Shown here piece after piece: positions 3,491-19,470 of a stretch of 20,000 nucleotides of DNA. The DNA is from Xylographa opegraphella. Its lineage: Eukaryota. The notes under the pieces were generated by a model. The model saw only the letters and a list, made by a program, of their open reading frames with translations, searched no databases and was not told the DNA's origin. The stretch's first letter is position 1. Each line of letters begins with the position of its first letter. Location of the stretch: the NCBI GenBank assembly GCA_022813865.1, contig JALDZX010000023.1, positions 307,375 to 327,374 on the forward strand, given 5' to 3'. The translations under genes and the position numbers were made by a program.

Positions 3491-3629
3491 TCCAGCGGGC
3501 AGCCTTGTGTGTGTCCAGGTCCTAACGCCGGGGTTCCGAGAGTAGGTCATAAGCTTCTTGTGCCTTTGATTTGCGCACGATATTTGGACCATTGATCTGC
3601 CTGTACTCGCGTGCGTCAGGCTTAGAGTA

Positions 3630-4775
3630 ATGACCGCTTCGTCGTCCTCGTCTTCGACGCCGACACTGCCGTCTACGGAAGAAGTCAAAACCGAAGTCGT
3701 CGCGGCCACCAAATCCACTCTCTCGGGGCTCCGCTCTCTGGCTGCGGGTGGGGTCGGCGGGATCTGCGCGGTCCTCGTGGGGCATCCGTTCGACTTGGTG
3801 AAAGTACGATTACAGACCGCGGACAAGGGCGTGTATACGGGAGCCACTGATGTTGTGCGGAAAACGGTAGCCCGGGAAGGGCTGGTCAGGGTTAGGAGTG
3901 CGGTGGCAGGCATTGCTTCTATTGCTAATCCACTTGACGGCAGGGACTCTATGCGGGCGTCTCAGCGCCGTTAGTCGGAGTGACTCCTATGTGTATGTGT
4001 CTCTGCCATCGGTGCCCACGGATTTGGCTAACATTGAGACAGTCGCTGTCAGCTTCTGGGTTAGCAGCCCAAGCACCCTACCTCGATGCTCCTGTGTTAA
4101 CTGCGGGAATGTCAGGGTTACGATGTTGGCAAATCCCTCGTCCGCTCATTCTCCCCCGCCACCACTGCCAACCAACAATTTACTATTGCACAAGTCTCAG
4201 CGGCGGGCTTCTTCTCGGCAATACCGATGACGTTGATCACGGCTCCATTCGAGCGAGTCAAAGTCCTCCTACAAATCCAAGGTCAAAAGCAACTGGCACC
4301 TGGCGAGAAGCCGCGGTATTCTGGCGGATTGGACGTGGTCAAGCAGCTTTATAAGGAAGGGGGCATACGCAGTGTCTTCCGTGGTAGTGTTATGACCCTA
4401 GCCAGAGACGGGCCGGGGAGCGCGGCATACTTCGCGACGTATGAGTACGTCAAGCGAAGGATGACTCCGAAAGACGCAGCTGGAAACCCATCCGGAGATC
4501 TCAGTCTGACCGCGGTGATGACTGCCGGAGGAGCCGCTGGCGTAGCCATGTGGATTCCTGTCTTCCCGATTGACACCGTCAAGTCGAGATTGCAGAGTGC
4601 TGACGGTCGACCGACCATTGGCGGGACCATCAGCGGCCTATATCGCAGCGGGGGATTCAAAGCCTTCTTCCCTGGCATAGGACCTGCAATGGCACGAGCG
4701 GTACCGGCGAACGCAGCAACATTCTTAGGAGTCGAATTGGCGCACAAGGCAATGAACAAGATGTTCGACTCATGA
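3630..4775 (+). CDS. CRC1: Mitochondrial carnitine/acylcarnitine carrier (SLC25A20/Crc1/AcuH). Exons 3630-3890, 3944-3992, 4043-4059, 4116-4775
   Basis: Three mitochondrial-carrier signatures (PFDLVKVRLQ, PFERVKVLLQ, PIDTVKSRLQ) plus carnitine-carrier-typical GVTPMFAVSFWGY, RDGPGSAAYF and RAVPANAATFLG. All three introns are GT..AG with branch-point-like motifs. Confidence 0.95.
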
Positions 4776-5044
4776 GGGTTTGCTGATAACTTGCGCTGTA
4801 TATTTCTCTGCCTGTATTGCTGTAAGGACCAGGCAAAGGCCAGTCAGTATAAAGTAGTGGTCCGGTCACGACGACGGGCTTGGGGGTTACAGAAAAAGAA
4901 TGGGGAAGGGGCTGCCAAAAAGGGATGTTTGGTAGTTGTTAGCATAGATAGCGTACTGTGAACAATATTGAATAATTCAGCTGTGACGGAGACACTCAAT
5001 GGCTCGATGCCAGTGCCTGTGATCCTAGAGAGCATGTAGCTAGT

Positions 5045-5050
5045 TATATA
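5045..5050 (+). promoter_or_regulatory. TATA-like box in an AT-rich patch, possible promoter of the candidate ncRNA
   Basis: TATATA in an AT-rich island (5040-5100) about 55 nt upstream of the outermost predicted helix. It could equally be part of the CRC1 3' end signal. Confidence 0.3.
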
Positions 5051-5104
5051 GATAATACTAACTACACGTGGACTACCTTACCTTAGTATTAAATTAGTAC
5101 ACAC

Positions 5105-6880
5105 AACGGCTCCAAAAGAATAACAAGCAGCCATCGGGGTTTCACCACGAGCGAAGCACACGCATCATCTGGGGTACAGCCATGCACCCCGACATGACAT
5201 GAGAATGCGGAGGCGAGCACGCACGGTCGGCAAGCCACCAGCTGTGCGGGTAACGACCTCACTGGCGCGCTTGTACGTAGTGGCTCTCGGGCCGCTCAGC
5301 ATCATCGACGGAAAGGATGGTGGAGAACGCCACCGCTGGCAAAGATCGATGCGCATCGCCGAATCGTCTGGACGTTCTGGGATACTCATTATTATTCCGA
5401 CACCCAGACCTCCAATGCGTCGGAGATTTCTGCGAGCACGAGGCAGTTGATACAGGGGAAAGGGGGCAAGGGCGCCCCCTCCCTCCCTCCCTTTCGAAGA
5501 TCACAATGAGACGGGAATTTTCTGGACCACTACAATACTGACAGACGGTCCGAGTTGAATCTTCGCAAAGCGGAGGTTACCAGGATCGTGCTTAACCCTA
5601 AGCGGTGGTGGGTTTGCCATGCATGAAAAATGTTCCGTCGGAGATGCAGAGACAAGGGAGGAATCATTGTGACGATTGACTGGCAGCACATGTCTCTTCG
5701 GGGACTCACCCCTGACCATGGACCATGCTCTCAGAAGACACCGTATCTTGATCAGTTAGTATGCCTGAATCGACATCAACTCGACCGTAGGGCAAGGCCC
5801 GTTGAGTGTCAGAGAAGTTCCAACACCCCGACTGAAAGCTGTCCGAGAATGCTGGAGCCGTGGATTACGCCCCTCCCACCGCAGCCTCAACTCAGCCTCT
5901 GTAAATGTTTCAAGAATTGTTTTCAACCCATGGTAGGAGCTGATAGCCAGACGATCATGGACAGCTACGACAAGCTGAAAGTCCGGACTCTCTGCTGTGC
6001 TCGGGCTGCGAAATGGCTGATATTCGGACGACAGGGCAATCAATCGTCGATACGATCCGCGTGGCATTATCAGATCCACAACCATGCTACTTTCCTGAGT
6101 GGATGGTCTCAACATCCATGGTACAGGAAAATTCGACAGCGCAGATCCATTGCCCCATTGAGAAACAACAACTAGTACGAGAAGCCTTCAGCTCAGCGCG
6201 AGGCCGCCGCACCGCGTGATAACCACCTATTATCGATAACAAAGCGCTATTCGACCGGTGCCCAGGGAGAGATTATGGCCCCCTTAATGGCACGATTCCG
6301 GAGACAGGAGACAGGGCGACGACAAGCATCGAAGTGCCTGGTCAGGAGCTTCCCAGCTGTTAACGATGAGGGAAACCCTGCCCGCGATGTTGTTCAACAA
6401 CGGTACGGAGTAGCTGCGGCACGAACTAGTGCCGATTATCCCGGGGGAAATAATGGCCCGGCGACGACTCGGTCGCTTAAAAAGGCTCGATTGGTCGTAG
6501 CGCCGTCCTGCGGCAGGTCCAAAAGCCGGGACGGCCCCGCATTGGCTGCCGGCCTTGCATCGGACTGGGTTTGCCAACAGTCGAGGCATACCCCAAGCTT
6601 CGATATATCCCATATATTCCGTATGTGATATTGGAACTATGACACCCGAATTGACAAGGGCCAACTTCTCCATGGCGGCCTACGTTAGTGTCACAGATGC
6701 TGGACGTGTGCTCAGACCGCTGTCACGATGCAACTGGCCTGTCGGTGGGAACTTCCGTACGGTCCAAGGACGAACACTACCCCAGAGCGCACGATGGGTG
6801 TGTACACATGGCACGGACTCGCATGGACTCGCAGGAGCACTTAAAGACACGCTGGTAGCCAGTTATTTTTCAGCTTGAAA
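5105..6880 (+). ncRNA. Candidate telomerase RNA (TER/TR); ends approximate
   Basis: Template TAACCCTAA at 5593-5601. Stem-loop 5545-5589 lies 3 nt upstream (template-boundary position). Helix 5518-5541/6491-6525 encloses the core, preceded on the 3' side by an A-run (6477-6490). Further nested helices: 5204-5214/6534-6543, 5170-5181/6585-6595, 5152-5157/6597-6602, 5116-5124/6862-6870. No credible protein in the interval, and the length (~1.8 kb) suits filamentous-ascomycete TRs. Pseudoknot and CR4/5 not resolved. Confidence 0.6.
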
Positions 6881-7019
6881 ATCAAGCATTGAGGGTTGAG
6901 ACAAAATCATTGATCAACGATTGGTCCTATCGGAGCAACGCTGCTCAGCTTGATTCCCTACCTGGACTCTGTGTATCTCTCTCTGCTCGTAACGGCTTTC
7001 GACGCCGGTCGTCTGCTCG

Positions 7020-8528
7020 ATGGCAGACTTCGATGCCGGTGCTCCAAAGATACACACCTACATTCCGCCCGATACGATCAAGGTCAGCCTTCCTTCCCTG
7101 GCTCTCTGATGCCAACCCTCTTTGCTGAGCCGCTGCTGATGCTCGATATCAGGGCACAACGGCCGCGACACTCGTGTTAGCGACTGCCGTTGCTGTGGGT
7201 AGGACCATCGTCCGCTACCGCCGGTTCAAGCGTCTCTACGTAGACGATGCCTTCCTCGCCATCGCCGTGGCAGCCGCGATAGCCGGGGCTGGCGTTTTCT
7301 ATGCCGCCCTTGACGGTGTCTTCATCGAGGCCGAGACCGCCGCGGGGCTCGCTCCCATCACTCCAGACTTCCCCAACATCTTTGCCACGACCAATACCAA
7401 AATCGATGTCGTCGTCAGCCTCTTCTGGCTCAGCGTTTTCGCCGTCAAATTCTCCTTCTTGTCGTTCTTCCATCGGCTCATCGTTCATTCGCGCCGTCTG
7501 AGAATTTGGTGGTGGGTCTGTGTGGTGATATCCGTACCGCTGACGATCGCCAACATCATCGTTCCCTGGCTCGTTTGCCCGTCCTACAAGCCCATTGGCA
7601 TCCGTAAGTCCGCCAAATCCTCAGCGGGCTTTTGACGTACCGCGATTGGCTGAGGATATGGTTGGCTAAATTCAGTCGTGTAGAGGAATGTGCCACACCG
7701 AAGAATGTCAAAGGATCAACGATCACCCTCGAATATGGCTTTACATTCGACATTGTTACCGATCTCCTGGGTGAGTTCGCCCTTTGTCTTTCACCGAAGC
7801 ACAACCCTTGCAATCCAGTTATCTTGGCGCTTTCCTTCCGTCTCTTTCCAGACTCGCTGACCACTCGGTTTTCTGTTGCCACAGTGATCTCCATACCCAT
7901 CATCCTGCTCCACAACTCTCGCTCCCTTTACCTCCGGCAGAAACTCATCCTTGGCTTCATGCTGTGCCTCAGTATATTCCTCATCATCATCTCCATCTTC
8001 CGCTTCATCAGCACCCAGCCCGGCATCTCCGGCGTGTGGGCGTACATCTGGTATCTCTACTGGGGCGATATCCAGGCCTCCGTGGCAATCATCCTGGTGT
8101 CGGCGACCGTGTTCCGGTCCCTCTTCGTCTCCGAGCATTCGGGCAACAAGCGAGCGCCCAGGATGAACAATCAGTTGAAGTCGTGGTCCCCGGACGGTTC
8201 GCCGACGACCGGTCAAAGTCCGGCCGGCTTCTCGCCCAAGCGCTGGTTTTCACGCTTTTTGTCGAGATCGAGTCGGAAGTCCGACATGCAGCAGGACCAG
8301 ACCAACTGGAGAACCAACCCCCTGCCGGGTATTCAGCACGCGGCGACGATGACGGGGGTGAGGACCATGATCTGGGAGAACGGAAGGGCGACGCAAGGCT
8401 CGTTCGAGGGCTGGAAGGATGACTCCATATCCTCGATCGGGAAGCCGTCATCACATCTAAACGCCTCGGGCGAAATGCCGGGGAGCATGAACGAGAAGGA
8501 GAGAGCCAATTACGATAGTTATGTATGA
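7020..8528 (+). CDS. PTH11-like (fungal rhodopsin-domain) integral membrane protein, no CFEM. Exons 7020-7082, 7153-7603, 7684-7770, 7885-8528
   Basis: R..VR..RFKRLYVDDAFL, WLSVFAVKFSFLSFFHRLI, CP...C, DIVTDLL|VISIPIILL...L..RQK...F.L....IIISIFR and W..IQASVAII..S...FRSLF are hallmark PTH11-family motifs. About 7 hydrophobic segments and a low-complexity cytosolic tail. The first exon (MADFDAGAPKIHTYIPPDTIK) is inferred from frame and splice sites. Confidence 0.88.
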
Positions 8529-8741: not shown

Positions 8742-11129
8742 TCACAGGACCCATCCTTCATCATCCCTCGGAGCCTGCCTAGGCTTCGTCCTCCTGGAAG
8801 CCCACCAAGTCCTTTCGGCCATGGCGGTCGCGATGTGCGCTTTTCCAGCAAGTTTGCTCCGTGGACGTCTGCCCCGGGTGCCTTTCCACAGCCGACCAAG
8901 GCTGCCGATCCTCAGGAGCGCGTACAATGGTAGATACCACTCCGAGGGCCGCACGCTTTCGTGTTTGGGCTTGAAGACTTCAAAGCGCTTCCCGCGCTCA
9001 CGCCACGGTGCCGCGTCATCGGACTTCATGGCGCGGATGAGGTGCCGTTTCTGAGAATTGTAGAGCGCGTGTGAGCTTTGGACGATGGTGTTTATGTTCA
9101 AGACCACGAGATAAGTGGCAATCCCGACGGAGAGAATTGTTGGTAGCAAAGCGTTGGAAGGTTGGGTTGTAGAAAAGAGTGACTGCCGGTAAAAGCGTCA
9201 GTGGAGCCTTTGTGATCGCATCCGATGCTAGAACCTGTACATACGGCGTTTCGATATGGTACGGGAATCCTGGTGGCCGTGGAGGCCAACAGAAAAAGAA
9301 CGGACAGGCACTTACCGTGCAAAAAGACAACGGTAGAAAAAATATGCTGACAAAGGTTAATAACTTGACGTTCTCGCCAAGCCGAGTCGACGCTCTGCTC
9401 TCGATGACGGCGCTCGCATTGAAAAGCTGCACGCGTAAGCATAAGAGTAGACTTTGGGACCGAGAGTACTCACTGCATCACGGAGAGCTATCGTAGATGC
9501 AAGCTTCTGTCTGAAGTATTGCCGCTGATTCTCGAGAACCCGACATTGCTGTTCAGCAACTCGGTATTGCACCAGATCGAGCTCCGACAATGCGTTGCCC
9601 CGAAGCAAGATCTCGATACGAGCTTTCTTCCAGAGAGTCCATTGAGTGAGATTGTCCGTAATACTGATCTCGAACTCGGATAGACAGTCAATCGCCCAGA
9701 AGTATCTTCGGGATCTTGAAAAGGCTCCGTCATCAAAGAGCAAGTTATCATGCTGTGCCGGCTGCATCAATGAGTCCCCGCTGTCAAGGATATACTCAAA
9801 GAAGGTTTGGAAATCGGTCCATCTATCGCTGATTCTTTGCAACCCTTGTCCTATCAAGTTCATTTCAGCACCAAGCTTCGTCAAACGGCCAACGAAGTGA
9901 CCTGAGATATGTTTGTCCTCAGCAGAGATTGCGGTCATTGGGAAAGAAGTGTTACTTTGATCGAAGAAATGCCCTGGGCAAAGAATTAGTATGGTCCAGT
10001 GGCCTACCGTAGAATGGATATCCACGCCAAGCTCCGTGCTTGTGTGCGCTGAAGAAAGACCGTACAGCTATCCTTTGCTCAGCGTGCCTCGAAGGACTTG
10101 TGGGGGCGCCGACTTACTGTATAGGAGCATTTCCTGAATGAGCGTTCCAAGGGATCGTCGTACAGAGGTCCATGTCGCCAAAGCTCGTGATAGTATCTCG
10201 GCTCCTTGACAATTTCGTAGAACGTGGTAGTGAACCCCAGCGTCTTATCGTTATATGGATTGACTGAGATGTTGCGGCCCTTATTCTGTAGATGAGTATT
10301 GATTGCGCTCCACAAGCCAGGATTACCGCCGGTTTGATCGAAATAGGGTATCGGTGCCTTGAAGCCTTTTACCTTCGCCGCGGTATCTGGGTTGATAGAG
10401 TCGCCAGTGGTCATGCCCTGAAACAATCTGAAAATGTTAATATTGCCACGAAGGCACATAATGTAACGCGTACATAAGTCTCGACCACGGCGCACTGGAG
10501 CTTTCAACCAGATCCGGAACCAGCAGCTCATTCCCGACGGCCTCGTCTCCCAAGCGATACAGTATGTGATGGTTCTGATGGTCAAAGTCAACAACCAGGA
10601 AGTCATTTCCTCTGCAGGTTCGCAAAGCGTTGTCGAACTCGCGCGCTGCATTCAATCTGGGCAACGAGTAGTGAGGCCGAAGTTGGTGGAAGTACTCTGC
10701 CGCAACTGGATCTCGGTTCTCCAGGAATGATTCAGACCCATATCTGGAAAAGGACAAAGGTAGGCGGCTGTCACCCGGTATCTTGCACCAGTCGCCAAGA
10801 TAAGTATGCAGGAATTTCGACAATTCATCATCGAGATGTCCATCCAGACGATCAAGATTCCAGTCCCGATACGAGATCTTATTATTCTTTTTCGAAGCTG
10901 GCGGAAAGCTGGGTTGTCTCAAAATGGGCACAATGTCTGTTTCAGAGACGGTTGCGGCATCGATGGGAACATCAAACCGTGCAGATTCATGTGTGGCAGG
11001 ATTTCCATTGACTATAGTAATCAATCGTTGAACTTGCTCATCCTGCCGTGCAAAATTGTTTTCAATCCGCTCGAGGACCGCGAGTATGCTGGCCAGAAGC
11101 GCATTGGACGGCGATTCAGAATCCGGCAT
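8742..11129 (-). CDS. Uncharacterised fungal protein with a CorA/Mg-transporter-like C-terminal two-TM region. Exons 11129-10474, 10427-10118, 10067-9474, 9426-9316, 9182-8742
   Basis: Five exons splice in frame (PWSRLI|LFQGMTTG, KCSYT|LYGLS, ALRDA|LFNAS, SFCT|SLFST). LFDDGAFSRSRRYFW, a long helical stalk and LFNASAVIESRASTRLGENVKLLTFVSIFFLPLSFCTSLFS followed by a second TM resemble fungal CorA-like C-termini. Confidence 0.82.
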
Positions 11130-11842
11130 CAAGCAGGTGGCAGCATGGATGCTCAAGTTGCCTCATAGATATATATACACTTCGAAAGCACAAGCAATAT
11201 ACAGAAGAAAAGCATACAGATCGTACGGAACATGAAATCAGGAAGGTGTCGCTGCAGTCGGAAGCACCGAGATCTTCTATCAGCCGCCTTTGTACTACTA
11301 TGCTTGTGTGGCTGTGCTGGACACCACCAATATATCTACTGCGCCTACGACTCATGCAAGAACCAGTCACAATCGACTGGATCGCTGTTCCGCTCGACAC
11401 GAGGCAAGAGCCATAAAGCTCACAGCTGTAAGTTTGACAGCGCCATGTGATTGACTTAGAATTCATTATACTGTCCGCCTTTGCTGAAAGCATGGATTGA
11501 GGTAACCACATAGAATGAAGCTGACGAACAATATTGCCTAAATACAGAAAGTATTCTTAGATTACTCTAGACACTCTCCAAGTACCCTTGAAGAATTTTT
11601 CAAGGATTCTTTACAGAGATTAAAGTATTCTCAAAGGCCCCCCAGCTCGAGTATACAGTCTAGACATCGGCCTTGGACCTTTCGACTAGATCCCAATATA
11701 GCGGCGGAAGCGCAACGCCATCCCGCATTCCACCTCAAGTTGTTGCCGCCTCCCAGCAAGTAACTAGGTCCTCAACTTTTGTTCTCTTCTAATTAGCCAT
11801 TCGGTCTTTCAACAACAATTCTTTCTTCGTGCGGTGATCACA

Positions 11843-12674
11843 ATGGCAAAGGGTGAAAACACGAAAAAGGCCGCCGGCAACGCCAAGGTAGTTTCTACTG
11901 ACTTCACTCGGTAGAATCCGCTGACCAGATTTCCCAAGAAAGCTGAAGTAGCAGCACAGAAGGCCGCAGCCGAGTCATCAAAGAAGGCTGCTTCAGAAGA
12001 TGCAGAATGGAGCAAAGGCGCCAAATCGACAGCGAAGAAGTGCGATACCCTCCCTTTCCTCAGTCTCGCTTGCCACTCTTTCATCCCCGAGCCTCCGTCC
12101 CGCTGTTCATACACAAAAGTCTGACCAATTTCTTACGTGCTCTTTGCTCTATAGGGAACAAGAGGCTGCCAAACGTGAAGAAGCAGCCCGTAAGAAGGCT
12201 GAGAAAGATGCACTTCTTGCCGAAGAAGAGAAAAACGCTCGTGCCGCCCCCAAAAATGCCAAAACTGCCGTGAAGAAAACGAATCGCGGTCTCGACCTCT
12301 CCCAGCTCGACGATGAAACCCCTAGTACAAAAGCGGCACCCGCCCTCAACGCCTCGAACATAGACGATGCCCTCGACGCCCTATCGATCACGACCGGAAA
12401 CCCCAACGCCCAGCAGGTCGACCGACATCCGGAAAGGAGATTCAAGGCCGCGTATGCAGCCTACGAAGCAAGGAGGCTGCCCGAATTGGAGACCGAGATG
12501 AAAGGACTGCGAAGACAGCAGCGCATGGAGGTTGTGCGGAAGGAGTTCGAGAAAAGCCCGGAAAACCCGTTCAATCAGGTCAGCGCAAGGTTCGACAGTA
12601 CAAAGGATGAGGTGCGGCAAATAAAGGCGGACGTGAAGAACAGCGTGGAGGGAAGACTGGGGAGCGGATCTTGA
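11843..12674 (+). CDS. Lso2/CCDC124/Oxs1-family (DUF1014) protein. Exons 11843-11887, 11939-12039, 12155-12674
   Basis: MAKGENTKKAAGNAK|KAE...EDAEWSKGAK, a charged coiled coil, ASNIDDALDAL, VDRHPERRFKAAYAAYE..RLP and F.KSPENPFNQ are the conserved CCDC124 motifs. Confidence 0.93.
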
Positions 12675-13565: not shown

Positions 13566-15323
13566 CTAATCATCTGCCTTGTCTTCCAAAGACGCCTTCT
13601 TCAGATCCTCGCTGACGTCTGCTTCGGCGTCTTTCTCCTGTGCCAATTCCGCCACCGCCGATGCATCTCCATTTATGGACTGGTTCGCAGTCGCAGGTTT
13701 CTTCGCTGTGTCATGGGTTCGACGATTATTGGTTCTCGACGAAGACGAGGCGGGAGTAGGGTTCTCTTCAGCTTCGGCTTCAAGACGGTCAATTTCAGCT
13801 TGAGCTTTGGCGATATTCTGAGCTTATGTTAGCGTATTACCACTAGATCATAGAGATAAGCAGGGACTTACTTCTTTGGTCTTCTTGTCTTGGTCTTGCT
13901 TCCAGTGATCGAGTTTGGCCTTTAGCTTTTCAACAACAGCTGCCACACCAGTCTGGTTCATTGGTGGCTCTACGTTGACCTTGGCTAGCTCTTCAATAAC
14001 TCCCATACTCAGATTGTATTTGCCTTCGGTGGCCGCAGGTAGAGCGGGGGATGCTGTTCCGTTCGGTTTCCGGGCCTTCTTACCCTTCTTCCCGCCAGTG
14101 CCCATGAAGTATGTGTCGTCTCGATCTTCTTTCTTGGATACCCTGGTACCCGGAATGCTGGATTCCTCCACGGTCCGCTGAGGCTCAGCGGCAAATCCGC
14201 TTGGCCCGCGTAACGACTTTGTTGCAGCTGGTGCAGAGGGATCAAAGTACCGAATCAATCCTTCAGCCGTCAATATCTCGTCCATATATGCAGGTTCACT
14301 AGCCTCCTCCAGTTTCTTATCGGCAATTTTCCTCCGCTTTTCCTTTTGATATGCGTCGCGCTCCGCCTTTTGTCGATCCTGCTTCTGTCTCCATAGTTCC
14401 TGTTCATAATCTCGATAAGCTACCCTAGCTTTGTGGTACGCATCTTTGATGTCCCTCATTGCTGAGTATTTCGTTTGCTGATCCGCGTGTAATTTGGTTC
14501 GCTCATCGCGCAGTGAGCTCAGACTCTTATAGGCATCATCTTGCTCTGCTTTGATCTCGTCTAGGGTTTTCGCGATTTCATTGTACTTGTCGCTAAGAGC
14601 TTTTGCTTCCGGGTTGTCAAGGCTCTTCCTAAGTTCGGAGATTTGAGCCTTCACATCGTCAATCCCTTTTTGGGCTTCTTCAAAGCCAGCGAACCCTTTC
14701 TTCTGCTTTTTCAAACTCGAAATTTCTGCCAAAGCTTTCTTCTCGTCCACGAGCTTCATCATTCCGCTCTCAACCTGCTTGTCCAATCGTTGGATCTCGC
14801 GATCAACCTCTTCGACATTCTTGAATGATACACGACTTCGAGCAACTTTCTGTTCTGCTATCCGAGATTTCAATTGAGCATCGAGTGACGTGATCTTGTC
14901 TTGGATGCTACCCCTTGACGACTTGAAGCCAGATTGCTGTTGTCGAATAGAGGCAAGTTCAGCTCTGAGCTCCTGTTGTCTTTTCGCTGTTGGTGAGTCC
15001 TTATCGCGCGGCTTTGTTAGGTCTAATTTCGCCTTGATTGCGTTCTAACATGTCATATATATTAGCATGGAAGCTCAATTCTTTTGGCGGAGGACAGGGA
15101 CAATGCCAAATTCAACAGCGACTGCAGCAGGCATGCGTGGAAGCGGCAAACATACCAATTTCTCCTGTGCGGCAGCATGCTGCTTTTCCGCTTTAGTTAA
15201 CTCGGATTTGTACTTCTCCTCATCTGGCTTCTCGGGTCGTGACTTCTGGGGCTTTTCTGCAGAGTCTGCATTAGTAGTGCCCAGTGAAATGTCGATTGCC
15301 GACGGAGTTGCAACGTCAGCCAT
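13566..15323 (-). CDS. BFR1: Nuclear segregation / mRNP-polysome-associated coiled-coil protein Bfr1. Exons 15323-15156, 15044-13872, 13817-13566
   Basis: RPEKPDEEKYKSEL, V.FKNVEEVDREIQRLDKQVESGMMKLVDEKKALAEISSL, ASEPAYMDEI, YFMGTGGKKGKK and VEPPM....V..VVEKLKAK match fungal Bfr1. Introns GTATGT..TAG and GTAAGT..CTAAC..CAG. Confidence 0.9.
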
Positions 15324-15645: not shown

Positions 15646-16455
15646 ATGTCTGCCATGGATCTTGACGAGAGACGGAACGACCCCGAGACTGAGCGAGAGC
15701 AAGTCCGCTTATGGCGAGCATGGCGCACAATACACGAAATGTGCCAGGACAGAGTGAATGCGCCTGGCTTTCTACCAGCGGTCAAGATACTGATAGGACT
15801 TGTCTAGGGCTATGAACTATCAGAAGATGAAGTTCGTATATCCCTGGAAGACTTTCGCGCTCAGTATTGCAACGACAATGCCCCAATGTAGGTGACTCGT
15901 ACACACCATACTGAACACAATCAAGCAGCGGCTAAGACTTAGAAAAGACGCCGGAAGCTTACCTTCCAAGCCAACCCTTCAGCACTCATGGTAGAAAAGC
16001 ATGCGTTACTCAATTCCTCAACGCCTACAGTTGGCCCCATTTGGGTCGAATTCTCGAACGACCAGTCTATCGGTGTCAAACAGATGCGGACATTCTGTCA
16101 GCATGTACATTCCAACCACTTCCATTCTGGCATCCTCGTCACTCAAACATCTGTTACGGCCGCTGCCCTCAAGATCATTCCAGCCGTGATGCCCTGCATC
16201 ATTGAAACATTCCAAGAGCAAGATCTACTTGTCAACATCACCCACCATGAGCTTGTGCCCAAGCACGTATTACTAAGTGCGGAAGAGAAGAAGAGACTTC
16301 TGGAACGATATCGCCTTAAAGAAAGTCAGCTTCCGAGAATCCAGACCGGTGATCCAGTCGCGAAATACCTTGGTCTGAGGCGCGGGCAGGTTGTGAAAAT
16401 CATACGGAAGAGCGAGACTGCCGGGCGATACGCGAGTTACAGGTGGGCAATATGA
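15646..16455 (+). CDS. RPB5: RNA polymerase I/II/III shared subunit Rpb5. Exons 15646-15753, 15808-15887, 15948-16455
   Basis: [92 protein letters not shown]. Confidence 0.98.
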
Positions 16456-17414: not shown

Positions 17415-18982
17415 TCAGGAGTGCACGCCTCGAGTAGCAGGCAACGAGGGACCGGATGTTGATGCTGGCGCACTGAGTAGTCCTCCCACGTCTTCGAGCA
17501 AGTTTCGAGCACCATGAGGAGACCTTTGCCTCCCTGGAGTATTATGCATCAGTGGCCGTAAGGAGTATGTTGCGCTCGATGGATCAGATACGGAGATCGA
17601 GCTTGTTCTTCGTGGTACATCGTCACCAAGCAGGCCCCCCACATCAAAGAATGACATCCGACGGGGAGTCAATACCGAAACATCGCGAGGACTTGGGGGA
17701 TCTTCCCTGGAGATGTGAGTTATCTTGAGATCCGTTTCATCAGATTCCACCGAGTGCCGTTCAGGGAATGTCCAGTTCGGCTGTGCTGGTGATATTATTC
17801 TTGAAGGGGAATTGAGAGGGAGAACAGCAGGCGCAGGTCTGGCACAATTGGACCTTTGACCAGAGAATTCAGGCCCAAGCCGTATTCCCAGATCTCCAAC
17901 CAGGTCGCTATCACTACCCCAGCTCAATGCAGCCCTGGGGCGGTTTGATGCGGTATTAGGACGATCAAGGGCACTCCCCCCACCCGTACTGCCGAACTTG
18001 AACTTCGGCTTTTTGGCACCACGGTCTCTTACGAAGGAGCCGAGTACGAGTGCGTTCGAAACGGCAGCCGCAGCGAGAATTTCGATGGAGGCCAAAAGGG
18101 AACGGAAAGGTTGATCTGAATGACGCTCGATCGTTGCGTACACCCGGTAGATAGTGATTGCGACAAGGATTAATGAAAGGCCGAAAAGCAGGACAAGATG
18201 GATTTTCCTACACATGTCAGAAAAGATTCGGGCAACGGCGAATCACTGGGTACCTACCGCTTCAGCCGCATGTTGGACATCAGAACAATGGGAATCGGAA
18301 AACACACAAGAGCCAGATCGGTGATGCTGTCGGCCACGCCCATGGTCAACAACTGAGCATAGCCTTGACGACAATGAGGACCGGGATCCGGCACTACTTG
18401 CCAATAATGGGAAAAGGGCTGGCATTCGGAAAGAGTAGCGGTGACGACTCCGAGGAAGGTGACGAGTAGAAACCACCTAATGATCTGAAAACCGATCTCG
18501 TATGATCTCTTCCACACCCCTTTGTATAAACGTTTGAGGAACTCGGAGATGGTGAGTTTCGCGATCCAAAGGCTGAACGCTCTGATCAGCAAACAGCCTT
18601 ACAACGTCTCTGCAGGGTCTACCCACAATGCAGCATAGAAAATACGCGCGGCCAAGACCAGCTTACTCCCAATCTCTCGATGATGTATATCGTCGGCCGA
18701 GAGTCCGGTCGTGATCGCATTGTTCGTCCCCCATCGCAAAACCAGGTGAACGAAAGCCATGCGTCCCATCAACGGTATAATGCTCCAAGCCATAATCCTA
18801 TCCTCCATGAACAGTTTTTCCGTCCTCACATAGCGACCGCAAAGGCGGACAATAATGATGACCAGTGCAAAGCCGGTGCACCACCATGACACAAGTAGCG
18901 TGGGGTTATCCTGGATCGAGTTCTGCGCTGGAGGTGGATCTGAGTAGATTTGACGAGACATCAAAGTCCGAGGAATAAACAT
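17415..18982 (-). CDS. PTH11-like (fungal rhodopsin-domain) integral membrane protein, no CFEM. Exons 18982-18627, 18572-18258, 18207-17415
   Basis: NPTLLVSWWCT, R..GRYVRTEKLFMED, IGSKLVLAARIFYAAF|LWIAK, ECQPFSHYWQVVPDPGPHCRQG, ITDLALV.FPIP and EILAAAAVSNALVLGSFVRDRG. Ser/Pro-rich tail. Confidence 0.92.
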
Positions 18983-19470
18983 GGCCGGCAGCGATCAAGC
19001 AGCCACCCTCCACAGGAGGGTGAGTAGATGTAGGGACAAATCAACGCAGTGAGGCTATCGAAATCTCGCGCTCAGGTTTCGCATAGGATATTGTATTCGC
19101 CATGGTAGTGAAATGGCGGGCGCTTGAACCATGCTCAAGTCAAGATAATCGCAGCGTTCCGGTTGTCAGAGTTGAGATTCGAGTTAATCGATAGCTTGTA
19201 CGATGCGCAACAGAGAAACCTTCGAGAGTGCTGTCAACCAACGAGTAGAGTCAAGGTTGGAGGGCGAGAGAGGCCAAGAATACGACGACGGAAGGCTTAG
19301 ATAGAAAGCGTGGGATGAACAGTCGAGCGATTGGACTCACTAGCGACTCGAGACCCAGTCCCCAAGATAAGTGAGCCGGGGCCAAGGCCGATGACCCCCA
19401 AATGGGTCACCGGGACGTGGCTGCAGGTTGTCTTTTGCGGCGGTCGTCGGGGCTCAGTGCCAAAAGCAAC

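Follow-up and report, generated by a model that had tools for sequence, protein, structure and literature searches.

Does a 20,000-nucleotide stretch of the genome of the lichen-forming fungus Xylographa opegraphella (Lecanoromycetes) harbour the gene of a telomerase RNA (TER)? The question is raised by a hairpin at positions 5545-5589 on the + strand of this stretch (contig JALDZX010000023.1, positions 307,375 to 327,374 of the forward strand; the entire analysed stretch is referred to below as the window, and its numbering is used throughout), which is separated by the linker GCU (5590-5592, + strand) from a C-rich, telomere-like 9-mer at 5593-5601 on the same strand. The hairpin, its stability and its restriction to the + strand are observed features of the locus, as are the 3-nt spacing between the end of the hairpin and a perfect motif of 1.5 telomere repeats, and the gene-free setting of both elements. 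Transcription of the region, service of the 9-mer as a template and action of the helix as its boundary are what we infer. We consider the chances about even that the hairpin is the template boundary element (TBE) of a TER gene not described previously.

The hairpin is built from two stems. The outer stem is formed by ACGGUCC (5545-5551) and GGAUCGU (5583-5589), and the inner stem by AAUCUUCGC (5558-5566) and GCGGAGGUU (5570-5578), the latter two being connected by an AAA loop (5567-5569). These stems and the loop, followed by the GCU linker and the template, had been put forward in a preliminary description of the locus, and all of them match the + strand sequence. RNAfold recovered the same two-stem structure and extended it with the pairs G5554-C5580 and U5555-A5579. 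Three of the 16 pairs originally proposed are G-U wobbles (G5548-U5586, U5560-G5576 and U5563-G5573). As argued in the same description, these three can pair in a + strand RNA only; on the - strand they turn into C-A oppositions, and the structure is restricted to + strand RNA. The hairpin is thereby found on the very strand on which the C-rich motif would act as template, which had likewise been claimed.

Comparison with dinucleotide shuffles revealed a clear strand bias in stability. The isolated hairpin (5545-5589) folds with -20.0 kcal/mol on the + strand (z -4.47), a value equalled in none of 200 shuffles, and with -8.9 kcal/mol on the - strand (z -0.39), where 73 of 200 shuffles were equally good, i.e. 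at chance level. Similarly, the stability above shuffled controls expected in the preliminary description for the longer segment 5540-5605 was obtained on the + strand (-25.3 kcal/mol, z -3.63, 2 of 200 shuffles as good), the - strand giving -13.6 kcal/mol (z +0.39, 120 of 200 shuffles as good). The frequency of such structures was assessed at 12,000 background sites on both strands, taken from the window and from 709 kb of fungal metagenome loci. A comparable hairpin domain, defined by an energy of -20 kcal/mol or lower and an end at most 5 nt upstream of the site, was present at 0.78% of them. We conclude that the hairpin is genuine and out of the ordinary, as is its bias towards one strand.

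Hairpin and motif are in turn enclosed by a local domain of 85 nt (5527-5611, + strand), the closing helix of which comprises 7 bp between CCACUAC (5527-5533) and GUGGUGG (5605-5611). This domain folds with -33.0 kcal/mol on the + strand (z -4.22, reached in 0 of 200 shuffles), compared with z +0.61 on the - strand. The hairpin was also retained in the minimum-energy structure of a much longer segment, 5090-6620, in which bases 5594-5600 of the motif displayed unpaired probabilities of 0.70-1.0. The closing helix of the 85-nt domain competes with a second pairing, between GCGGUGG (5602-5608) and CCACCGC (5877-5883). GCGGUGG lies directly 3' of the motif and finds a perfect complement 270 nt downstream, where by estimate ~0.08 such 7-mers would be expected by chance; this pairing would be the base of a long arm that separates the motif from a U-rich spot at 5905-5926. 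A further strong hairpin is formed ~50 nt upstream of the candidate boundary hairpin by a G-rich/C-rich near-palindrome, GGGGAAAGGGGGCAAGGGCGCCCCCTCCCTCCCTCCCTTTC (5455-5497), and the folding window at 5460 gave z -3.09 on the - strand as compared with -1.47 on the + strand.

The candidate template itself, TAACCCTAA, is present as a single copy in the 20-kb window. It is identical to the 9-nt template of Neurospora crassa TER, 5'-UAACCCUAA-3', given as 3'-AAUCCCAAU-5' (Qi 2013, PMC3592445). Position 5592 is occupied by U instead of the C expected for a continued telomeric register, and the motif therefore cannot extend further in the 5' direction.

The relative placement of helix and motif closely resembles that of known boundary elements. 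In Aspergilli the boundary element is a stable helix which closes a short arm and is mostly found 2 nt from the template (Kuprys 2013, PMC3603654), and a local helix adjacent to the template is the common boundary type according to a 2016 review (PMC4993307). The assertion in the preliminary description, that a helix a few nucleotides 5' of the template is the fungal arrangement, agrees with this published geometry of 2-3 nt (PMC3603654, PMC4993307). The X. opegraphella locus thus has in common with Aspergillus and Penicillium an arm-closing helix 2-3 nt 5' of a CCCUAA-containing template, the location of the RNA gene in a long gap free of open reading frames (ORFs), and a short arm as in Aspergillus aculeatus. 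In contrast, no likeness exists at the sequence level, the 3' strand UUGGGAA of the Aspergilli being absent here, and the helix in X. opegraphella is a simple 45-nt hairpin. With the TER of N. crassa (PMC3592445) the locus would share the 9-nt template, a boundary element adjoining the template and a size class of 1.5-2.4 kb, the TERs of A. nidulans and N. crassa having published lengths of 1584 nt and 2049 nt, respectively (PMC3603654, PMC3592445). Outside the filamentous fungi, a local helix 5' of the template limits copying in budding and fission yeast, in ciliates (helix II) and in echinoderms (P1.1). Those elements are backed by mutation and read-through assays, whereas the hairpin considered here is predicted only, and the ciliate element acts via a protein-binding sequence located at the stem's base, no such sequence being known in the present hairpin (PMC4993307).

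If the locus does encode a TER, RNA polymerase II would generate a + strand transcript of ~1.5-1.8 kb starting from around 5080-5150. Telomerase reverse transcriptase would then set the telomere 3' end on UAA (5599-5601), and copying of CCCAAU, from 5598 back to 5593, would add GGGTTA. Copying would halt at the rigid 18-bp helix that starts 3 nt further on, either through a limit that the helix imposes on the single-stranded RNA drawn into the active site or through its being held by the enzyme, after which the strand would realign for the next repeat. Once the identity as telomerase RNA is granted, a boundary function of the hairpin is highly probable. Possible promoter elements, TATATA (5045-5050) and CACGTG (5065-5070), are located on the + strand ~0.5 kb upstream of the motif, though both are short and expected to occur by chance. 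In the TER genes of Aspergilli, TCACGTG is found in a block labelled 'Promoter?' (Kuprys 2013, PMC3603654).

The surroundings are compatible with an RNA gene of this size. The motif lies in a gap of ~2.24 kb without a recognised gene (4776-7019), which would contain the whole RNA gene and is bordered by the stop codon of a carnitine-carrier gene (4775) and by the candidate ATG (7020) of a Fung_rhodopsin-domain (membrane) protein. It is the largest gap in the window, the remaining ones measuring ~0.8-1.2 kb, and it therefore provides space for an RNA of 1.5-1.8 kb. The motif is placed 0.8 kb after the carrier stop and 1.4 kb before the next candidate ATG, with room of 0.5 kb upstream and 1.3 kb downstream of it within the gap. 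The gap could instead be occupied by an unannotated protein gene confined to this lineage, such as the ORF 5630-6172, with hairpin and motif exerting translational control from its 5' untranslated region. The position of this ORF, the longest in the gap (181 aa), would suit such a function, its ATG at 5630 following shortly after the motif (29 nt). Conversely, 9.3% of 1000 gap shuffles contain an ORF as long as this one, which resembles a random translation in its abundance of Cys, Arg and Trp. Pfam scans did not assign a family to any of the six gap ORFs, this one included, and its translation had 0 matches in 1.84 billion protein representatives, so that no matching gene call exists anywhere. 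Likewise, an 84-aa ORF running across the hairpin on the - strand yielded no candidate among the gene calls in other assemblies. Considering the lack of Pfam families and homologues together with the unremarkable ORF length, nothing in the gap points to a protein gene, and we regard this explanation as most improbable.

A substantial body of results, set out in this and the following three paragraphs, weighs against a telomerase RNA. The 9-mer alone is not unusual: TAACCCTAA occurred at least once in 14 of 200 shuffled windows (~7%), and it was found in 5 of 80 other fungal loci, which had been collected from metagenomes via the carnitine-carrier protein. On the + strand, sliding-window folding across the gap gave a mean z of +0.13, the gap as a whole thus being no more structured than expected. 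In the fold of 5090-6620 the pairs of the hairpin had probabilities of just 0.26-0.41. Furthermore, a long-range helix that would surround the motif (5295-5313 with 5633-5651, 17 of 19 positions paired) was dropped, 52 of 100 shuffles containing an equal one.

The downstream domains of a TER were not recovered in the gap. In N. crassa, the template-pseudoknot domain holds PK1/PK2/PK2.1 and two helices enclosing the core, along with the template boundary element; the RNA also has a P5/P6/P6.1 junction, with a 4-bp P6.1 and an N-U-N-G-N loop (PMC3592445). An invariant adenosine lies between P6 and P6.1 (PMC4993307). Neither the core-enclosing helices nor PK1/PK2/PK2.1 or P5/P6/P6.1 are demonstrated at the present locus. 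The TERs of Aspergilli contain the pseudoknot blocks CS3 and CS4, a compact junction and, at the 3' end, a U-run followed by AUAAGU and GCUAACU (PMC3603654), and none of these was found here. A strict descriptor of a U-tract triple-helix pseudoknot had no match in 5602-6950 (3 of 40 shuffles had one), and a strict P5/P6/A/P6.1 descriptor (requiring a P5 with a minimum of 4 bp, 5-10 bp in P6, an A in the junction, and a P6.1 of 4 bp whose loop reads N-U-N-G-N or U-N-N-G) had none in 5601-6950 (8 of 30 shuffles had one); both descriptors accept the published Aspergilli elements by eye, their sensitivity in this fungal class not being established. A generic junction search, with no loop rule, returned 3 sites compared with a shuffle mean of 3.4. 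When three conserved motifs of Aspergilli were aligned to the gap, equal scores were reached by 170 of 200 shuffles for the junction, 200 of 200 for CS3 and 60 of 200 for CS4. With Rfam, nothing in the window reached the gathering score, and sub-searches of 4500-8500, 5480-6200 and 6200-6950, extended up to E 10, brought up no telomerase family, the presence in the library of a model for this fungal group not being confirmed.

Two other observations were made in the course of these searches. The gap contains a repeated 11-mer, TGGGTTTGCCA (also written UGGGUUUGCCA), at 5610-5620 and 6566-6576; both the repeat and its likeness to a conserved Aspergilli block located between template and pseudoknot, GGTTTGCCAATGC (also written GGUUUGCCAAUGC), are within chance by estimate and were set aside. 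Among the Rfam matches below threshold, a 31-nt segment of the - strand (5750-5780) resembles the C/D-box small nucleolar RNA (snoRNA) sR51, scoring 21.3 bits where the gathering score is 38, with E 0.06 in a 721-base search. This match is probably due to chance, and the sub-threshold snoRNA and microRNA matches were taken as chance altogether.

Weak candidates were nevertheless noted. A pseudoknot could be drawn by eye at 5893-6168 on the + strand, in which PK1 would pair CAGCCUCU (5893-5900) with AGGAGCUG (5935-5942) with 1 mismatch, PK2 would pair UUGUUUUCAA (5917-5926) with UUGAGAAACAA (6158-6168) with G6162 bulged, and UGUUUC (5905-5910) would provide the U-tract. This candidate fails the strict descriptor and emerges under relaxed rules only, which yield just alternatives around the U-rich segment 5905-5926, and, unlike in published fungal pseudoknots, 8 unpaired bases separate PK2 and PK1. 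A weak P6/P6.1 candidate (6539-6573, + strand) consists of P6 (6539-6558), the junction AU and P6.1 (CGGA-cuggg-UUUG, 6561-6573). The latter is the sole N-U-N-G-N loop with a preceding hairpin and includes two G-U pairs; no P5 accompanies it, and the structure, when forced, is 9 kcal/mol less stable than the free fold. The 3' end was equally elusive. Spliceosomal cleavage processes all known filamentous-fungal TERs (PMC4993307), and a non-canonical AUAAGU-type site is conserved in all 13 Aspergilli (PMC3603654). Neither AUAAGU nor AUACGU (ATAAGT or ATACGT in the DNA) occurs in 4700-7300 on the + strand, where the only hexamers resembling splice sites are GTACGT at 5273 and GTATGT at 6621. One possible 3'-end signal on the + strand (6581-6626) is composed of a 7-bp hairpin (6581-6603), a U/A/C-rich stretch and GUAUGU (6621-6626), a canonical 5' splice site. 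Its order resembles the hairpin, U-run and 5' splice site of Aspergilli, but AUAAGU, the U-run and a CURAY branch site are missing, and no CTRAC branch site was found after GTATGT 6621. A second possible signal (6851-6870, + strand) emerged from a scan for terminator-like sites and consists of a 5-bp hairpin, GCUGG-uag-CCAGU, followed by UAUUUUUC. The scan returned 1 site compared with 1.8 expected in shuffles, and this site is located just 150 nt before the next candidate ATG.

In combination, three features of Pezizomycotina TERs were found at the locus (template, adjacent helix and non-coding gap), and three others that were tested in silico were not (pseudoknot, junction and AUAAGU signal). 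The proposal of a TBE in the preliminary description consequently stands with respect to geometry, strand, motif and gap; the telomerase RNA identity that it presupposes is not supported by a pseudoknot, by P6/P6.1, by AUAAGU or by Rfam. A more far-reaching reading is a TER constructed unlike every filamentous-fungal one described. In such an RNA the 85-nt domain, closed by its local 7-bp helix, would lock in template and boundary hairpin, P6.1 and the triple-helix pseudoknot would be absent or strongly altered, and the 3' end would be formed at a GU splice site of the canonical type, or through some other route, instead of at AUAAGU, the site which blocks the second splicing step in other Pezizomycotina. 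We consider this variant unlikely.

The 9-mer might also function as DNA. Teloboxes, or Tbf1-type DNA sites, are found in fungal promoters with the consensus ARCCCTAA and require no RNA structure. The motif shares the CCCTAA core with them and could thus be a site for a telomere-repeat-binding factor of the Tbf1 type within a promoter or boundary element, the hairpin being unrelated. Telomere-like 9-mers were present in 12 of the 80 fungal loci, and two of these loci, L056 and L060, provide an example that looks like a DNA element. They have in common a non-coding block (L056:8766-9238 and L060:2173-2650, - strand as aligned) with 67% identity over 505 nt, indels that are not multiples of three, and no Rfam family. 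The block terminates exactly at AACCCTAACCCT, ~1.2-1.3 kb upstream of the carnitine-carrier gene, which is on the opposite strand. A TER linked to the carrier gene was rejected as an explanation for this block, as its conservation ends at the motif, a large convergent ORF follows 340 nt further and Rfam is blank; it could be either a small RNA of unknown type or an upstream DNA element bounded by a telobox, the latter being how we read it. In fungal gaps, roles other than that of a template are accordingly open to telomere-like motifs. A second pair of near-identical loci carries CTAACCCTAACCCTTAA on the - strand 200 nt past the carrier gene (L006:7273-7287 and L018:11286-11300). This motif was dismissed as a coding coincidence, since it belongs to the last part of a reading frame on the - strand (...PPNPNP stop).

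For X. opegraphella, however, a telobox would seem to fit less well. At 0.8 kb past the carrier stop and 1.4 kb before the next candidate ATG the motif would be far away for a fungal promoter element, and both this gap position and the strand-specific hairpin would be unexpected of such a site; the G-U-dependent structure would be left unexplained by a DNA site. Moreover, L056 and L060 are without synteny to the window: tblastn with four ORF translations from three neighbouring window genes gave no match in the 80 loci and no shared synteny. We judge this explanation to be very unlikely. Counterparts of the hairpin locus were equally absent from the collections searched. Blastn of the gap against the 80 fungal loci gave a best E of 1.9, the exact 21-mer spanning linker and motif had 0 matches in metagenome contigs and in prokaryote genome contigs, and the downstream protein, used as query against prokaryote genomes, returned no relative. 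When 11 contexts of telomere-like 9-mers from the 80 loci were folded (8 + 3), none showed a comparable adjacent hairpin.

The remaining explanation is coincidence, namely a chance telomere-like 9-mer next to an unrelated hairpin that might be a fortuitous inverted repeat or else part of another + strand transcript, for instance a long non-coding RNA or a long 3' extension of the carrier messenger RNA. The frequency of the 9-mer, the missing TER domains and signals, and the lack of an overall structure excess in the gap all speak for it, and the same holds for a rough estimate of the odds. With a genome of ~30-40 Mb, a 20-kb window would hold the sole TER gene with odds of ~5-7 in 10,000, which is about equal to the joint odds of the 9-mer (0.07) and a hairpin of this class in place (0.008). 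Conversely, a coincidence requires that the hairpin comes together with a distance of 3 nt on the right strand and with a gene-free gap larger than any other in the window, with a spare 0.5 kb upstream and 1.3 kb downstream, and that an 85-nt domain around the motif reaches its stability on the + strand only. An unusually long gap free of genes, together with the matching strand and the space to either side, perhaps favours a TER tenfold, and the missing pseudoknot, P6.1 and AUAAGU would lower its odds by a similar factor. Since the gain from gap and orientation is offset in this way by the missing domains, we place the identity of the locus as telomerase RNA close to an even chance, and hold coincidence to be a serious possibility, if below an even one.

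The gene map around the gap was obtained from Pfam scans of 22 long ORFs in the window. Upstream of the gap, a NOL1/NOP2-type methyltransferase (3-938, - strand), a class II aldolase (1923-2513, + strand) and the carnitine carrier (3570-4775, + strand) were assigned. The ORF 4101-4775 is a mitochondrial-carrier exon, 100% identical to a protein named carnitine transporter of Xylographa opegraphella, 97-99% identical to those of other Xylographa species and 84-93% identical to those of other lichen fungi. Eight further Xylographa species and Ptychographa xylographoides are represented among these carrier proteins, followed by Schaereria and more distantly related Lecanoromycetes. Downstream of the gap follow the Fung_rhodopsin-domain protein (from about 7020-7130 to 8528, + strand), Ccdc124 (11952-12671, + strand), Rpb5 (15943-16452, + strand) and a second Fung_rhodopsin-domain protein (17418-18994, - strand), along with two long - strand ORFs to which no family was assigned (9360-11162 and 13851-15044).

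A full-text literature search returned no paper joining 'telomerase RNA' and 'Lecanoromycetes', the supplementary alignments of Qi 2013, which possibly include lichen fungi, lying outside its scope, and none connecting Xylographa, genome and telomeres. If the hairpin at 5545-5589 is indeed a template boundary element, the locus would represent a TER gene of the principal class of lichen fungi, the Lecanoromycetes. A boundary helix next to the template is the ordinary, expected arrangement, and the gain would therefore be an added member and not a new principle. TERs evolve fast and are hard to find, and each added class helps to separate the universal parts, namely template, boundary helix, pseudoknot and P6.1, from those that are lineage-specific. 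Should the gene be genuine and truly lack AUAAGU and a canonical P6.1, it would shed light on the origin of, and changes in, 3'-end cleavage by the spliceosome and the CR4/5 domain in fungi.

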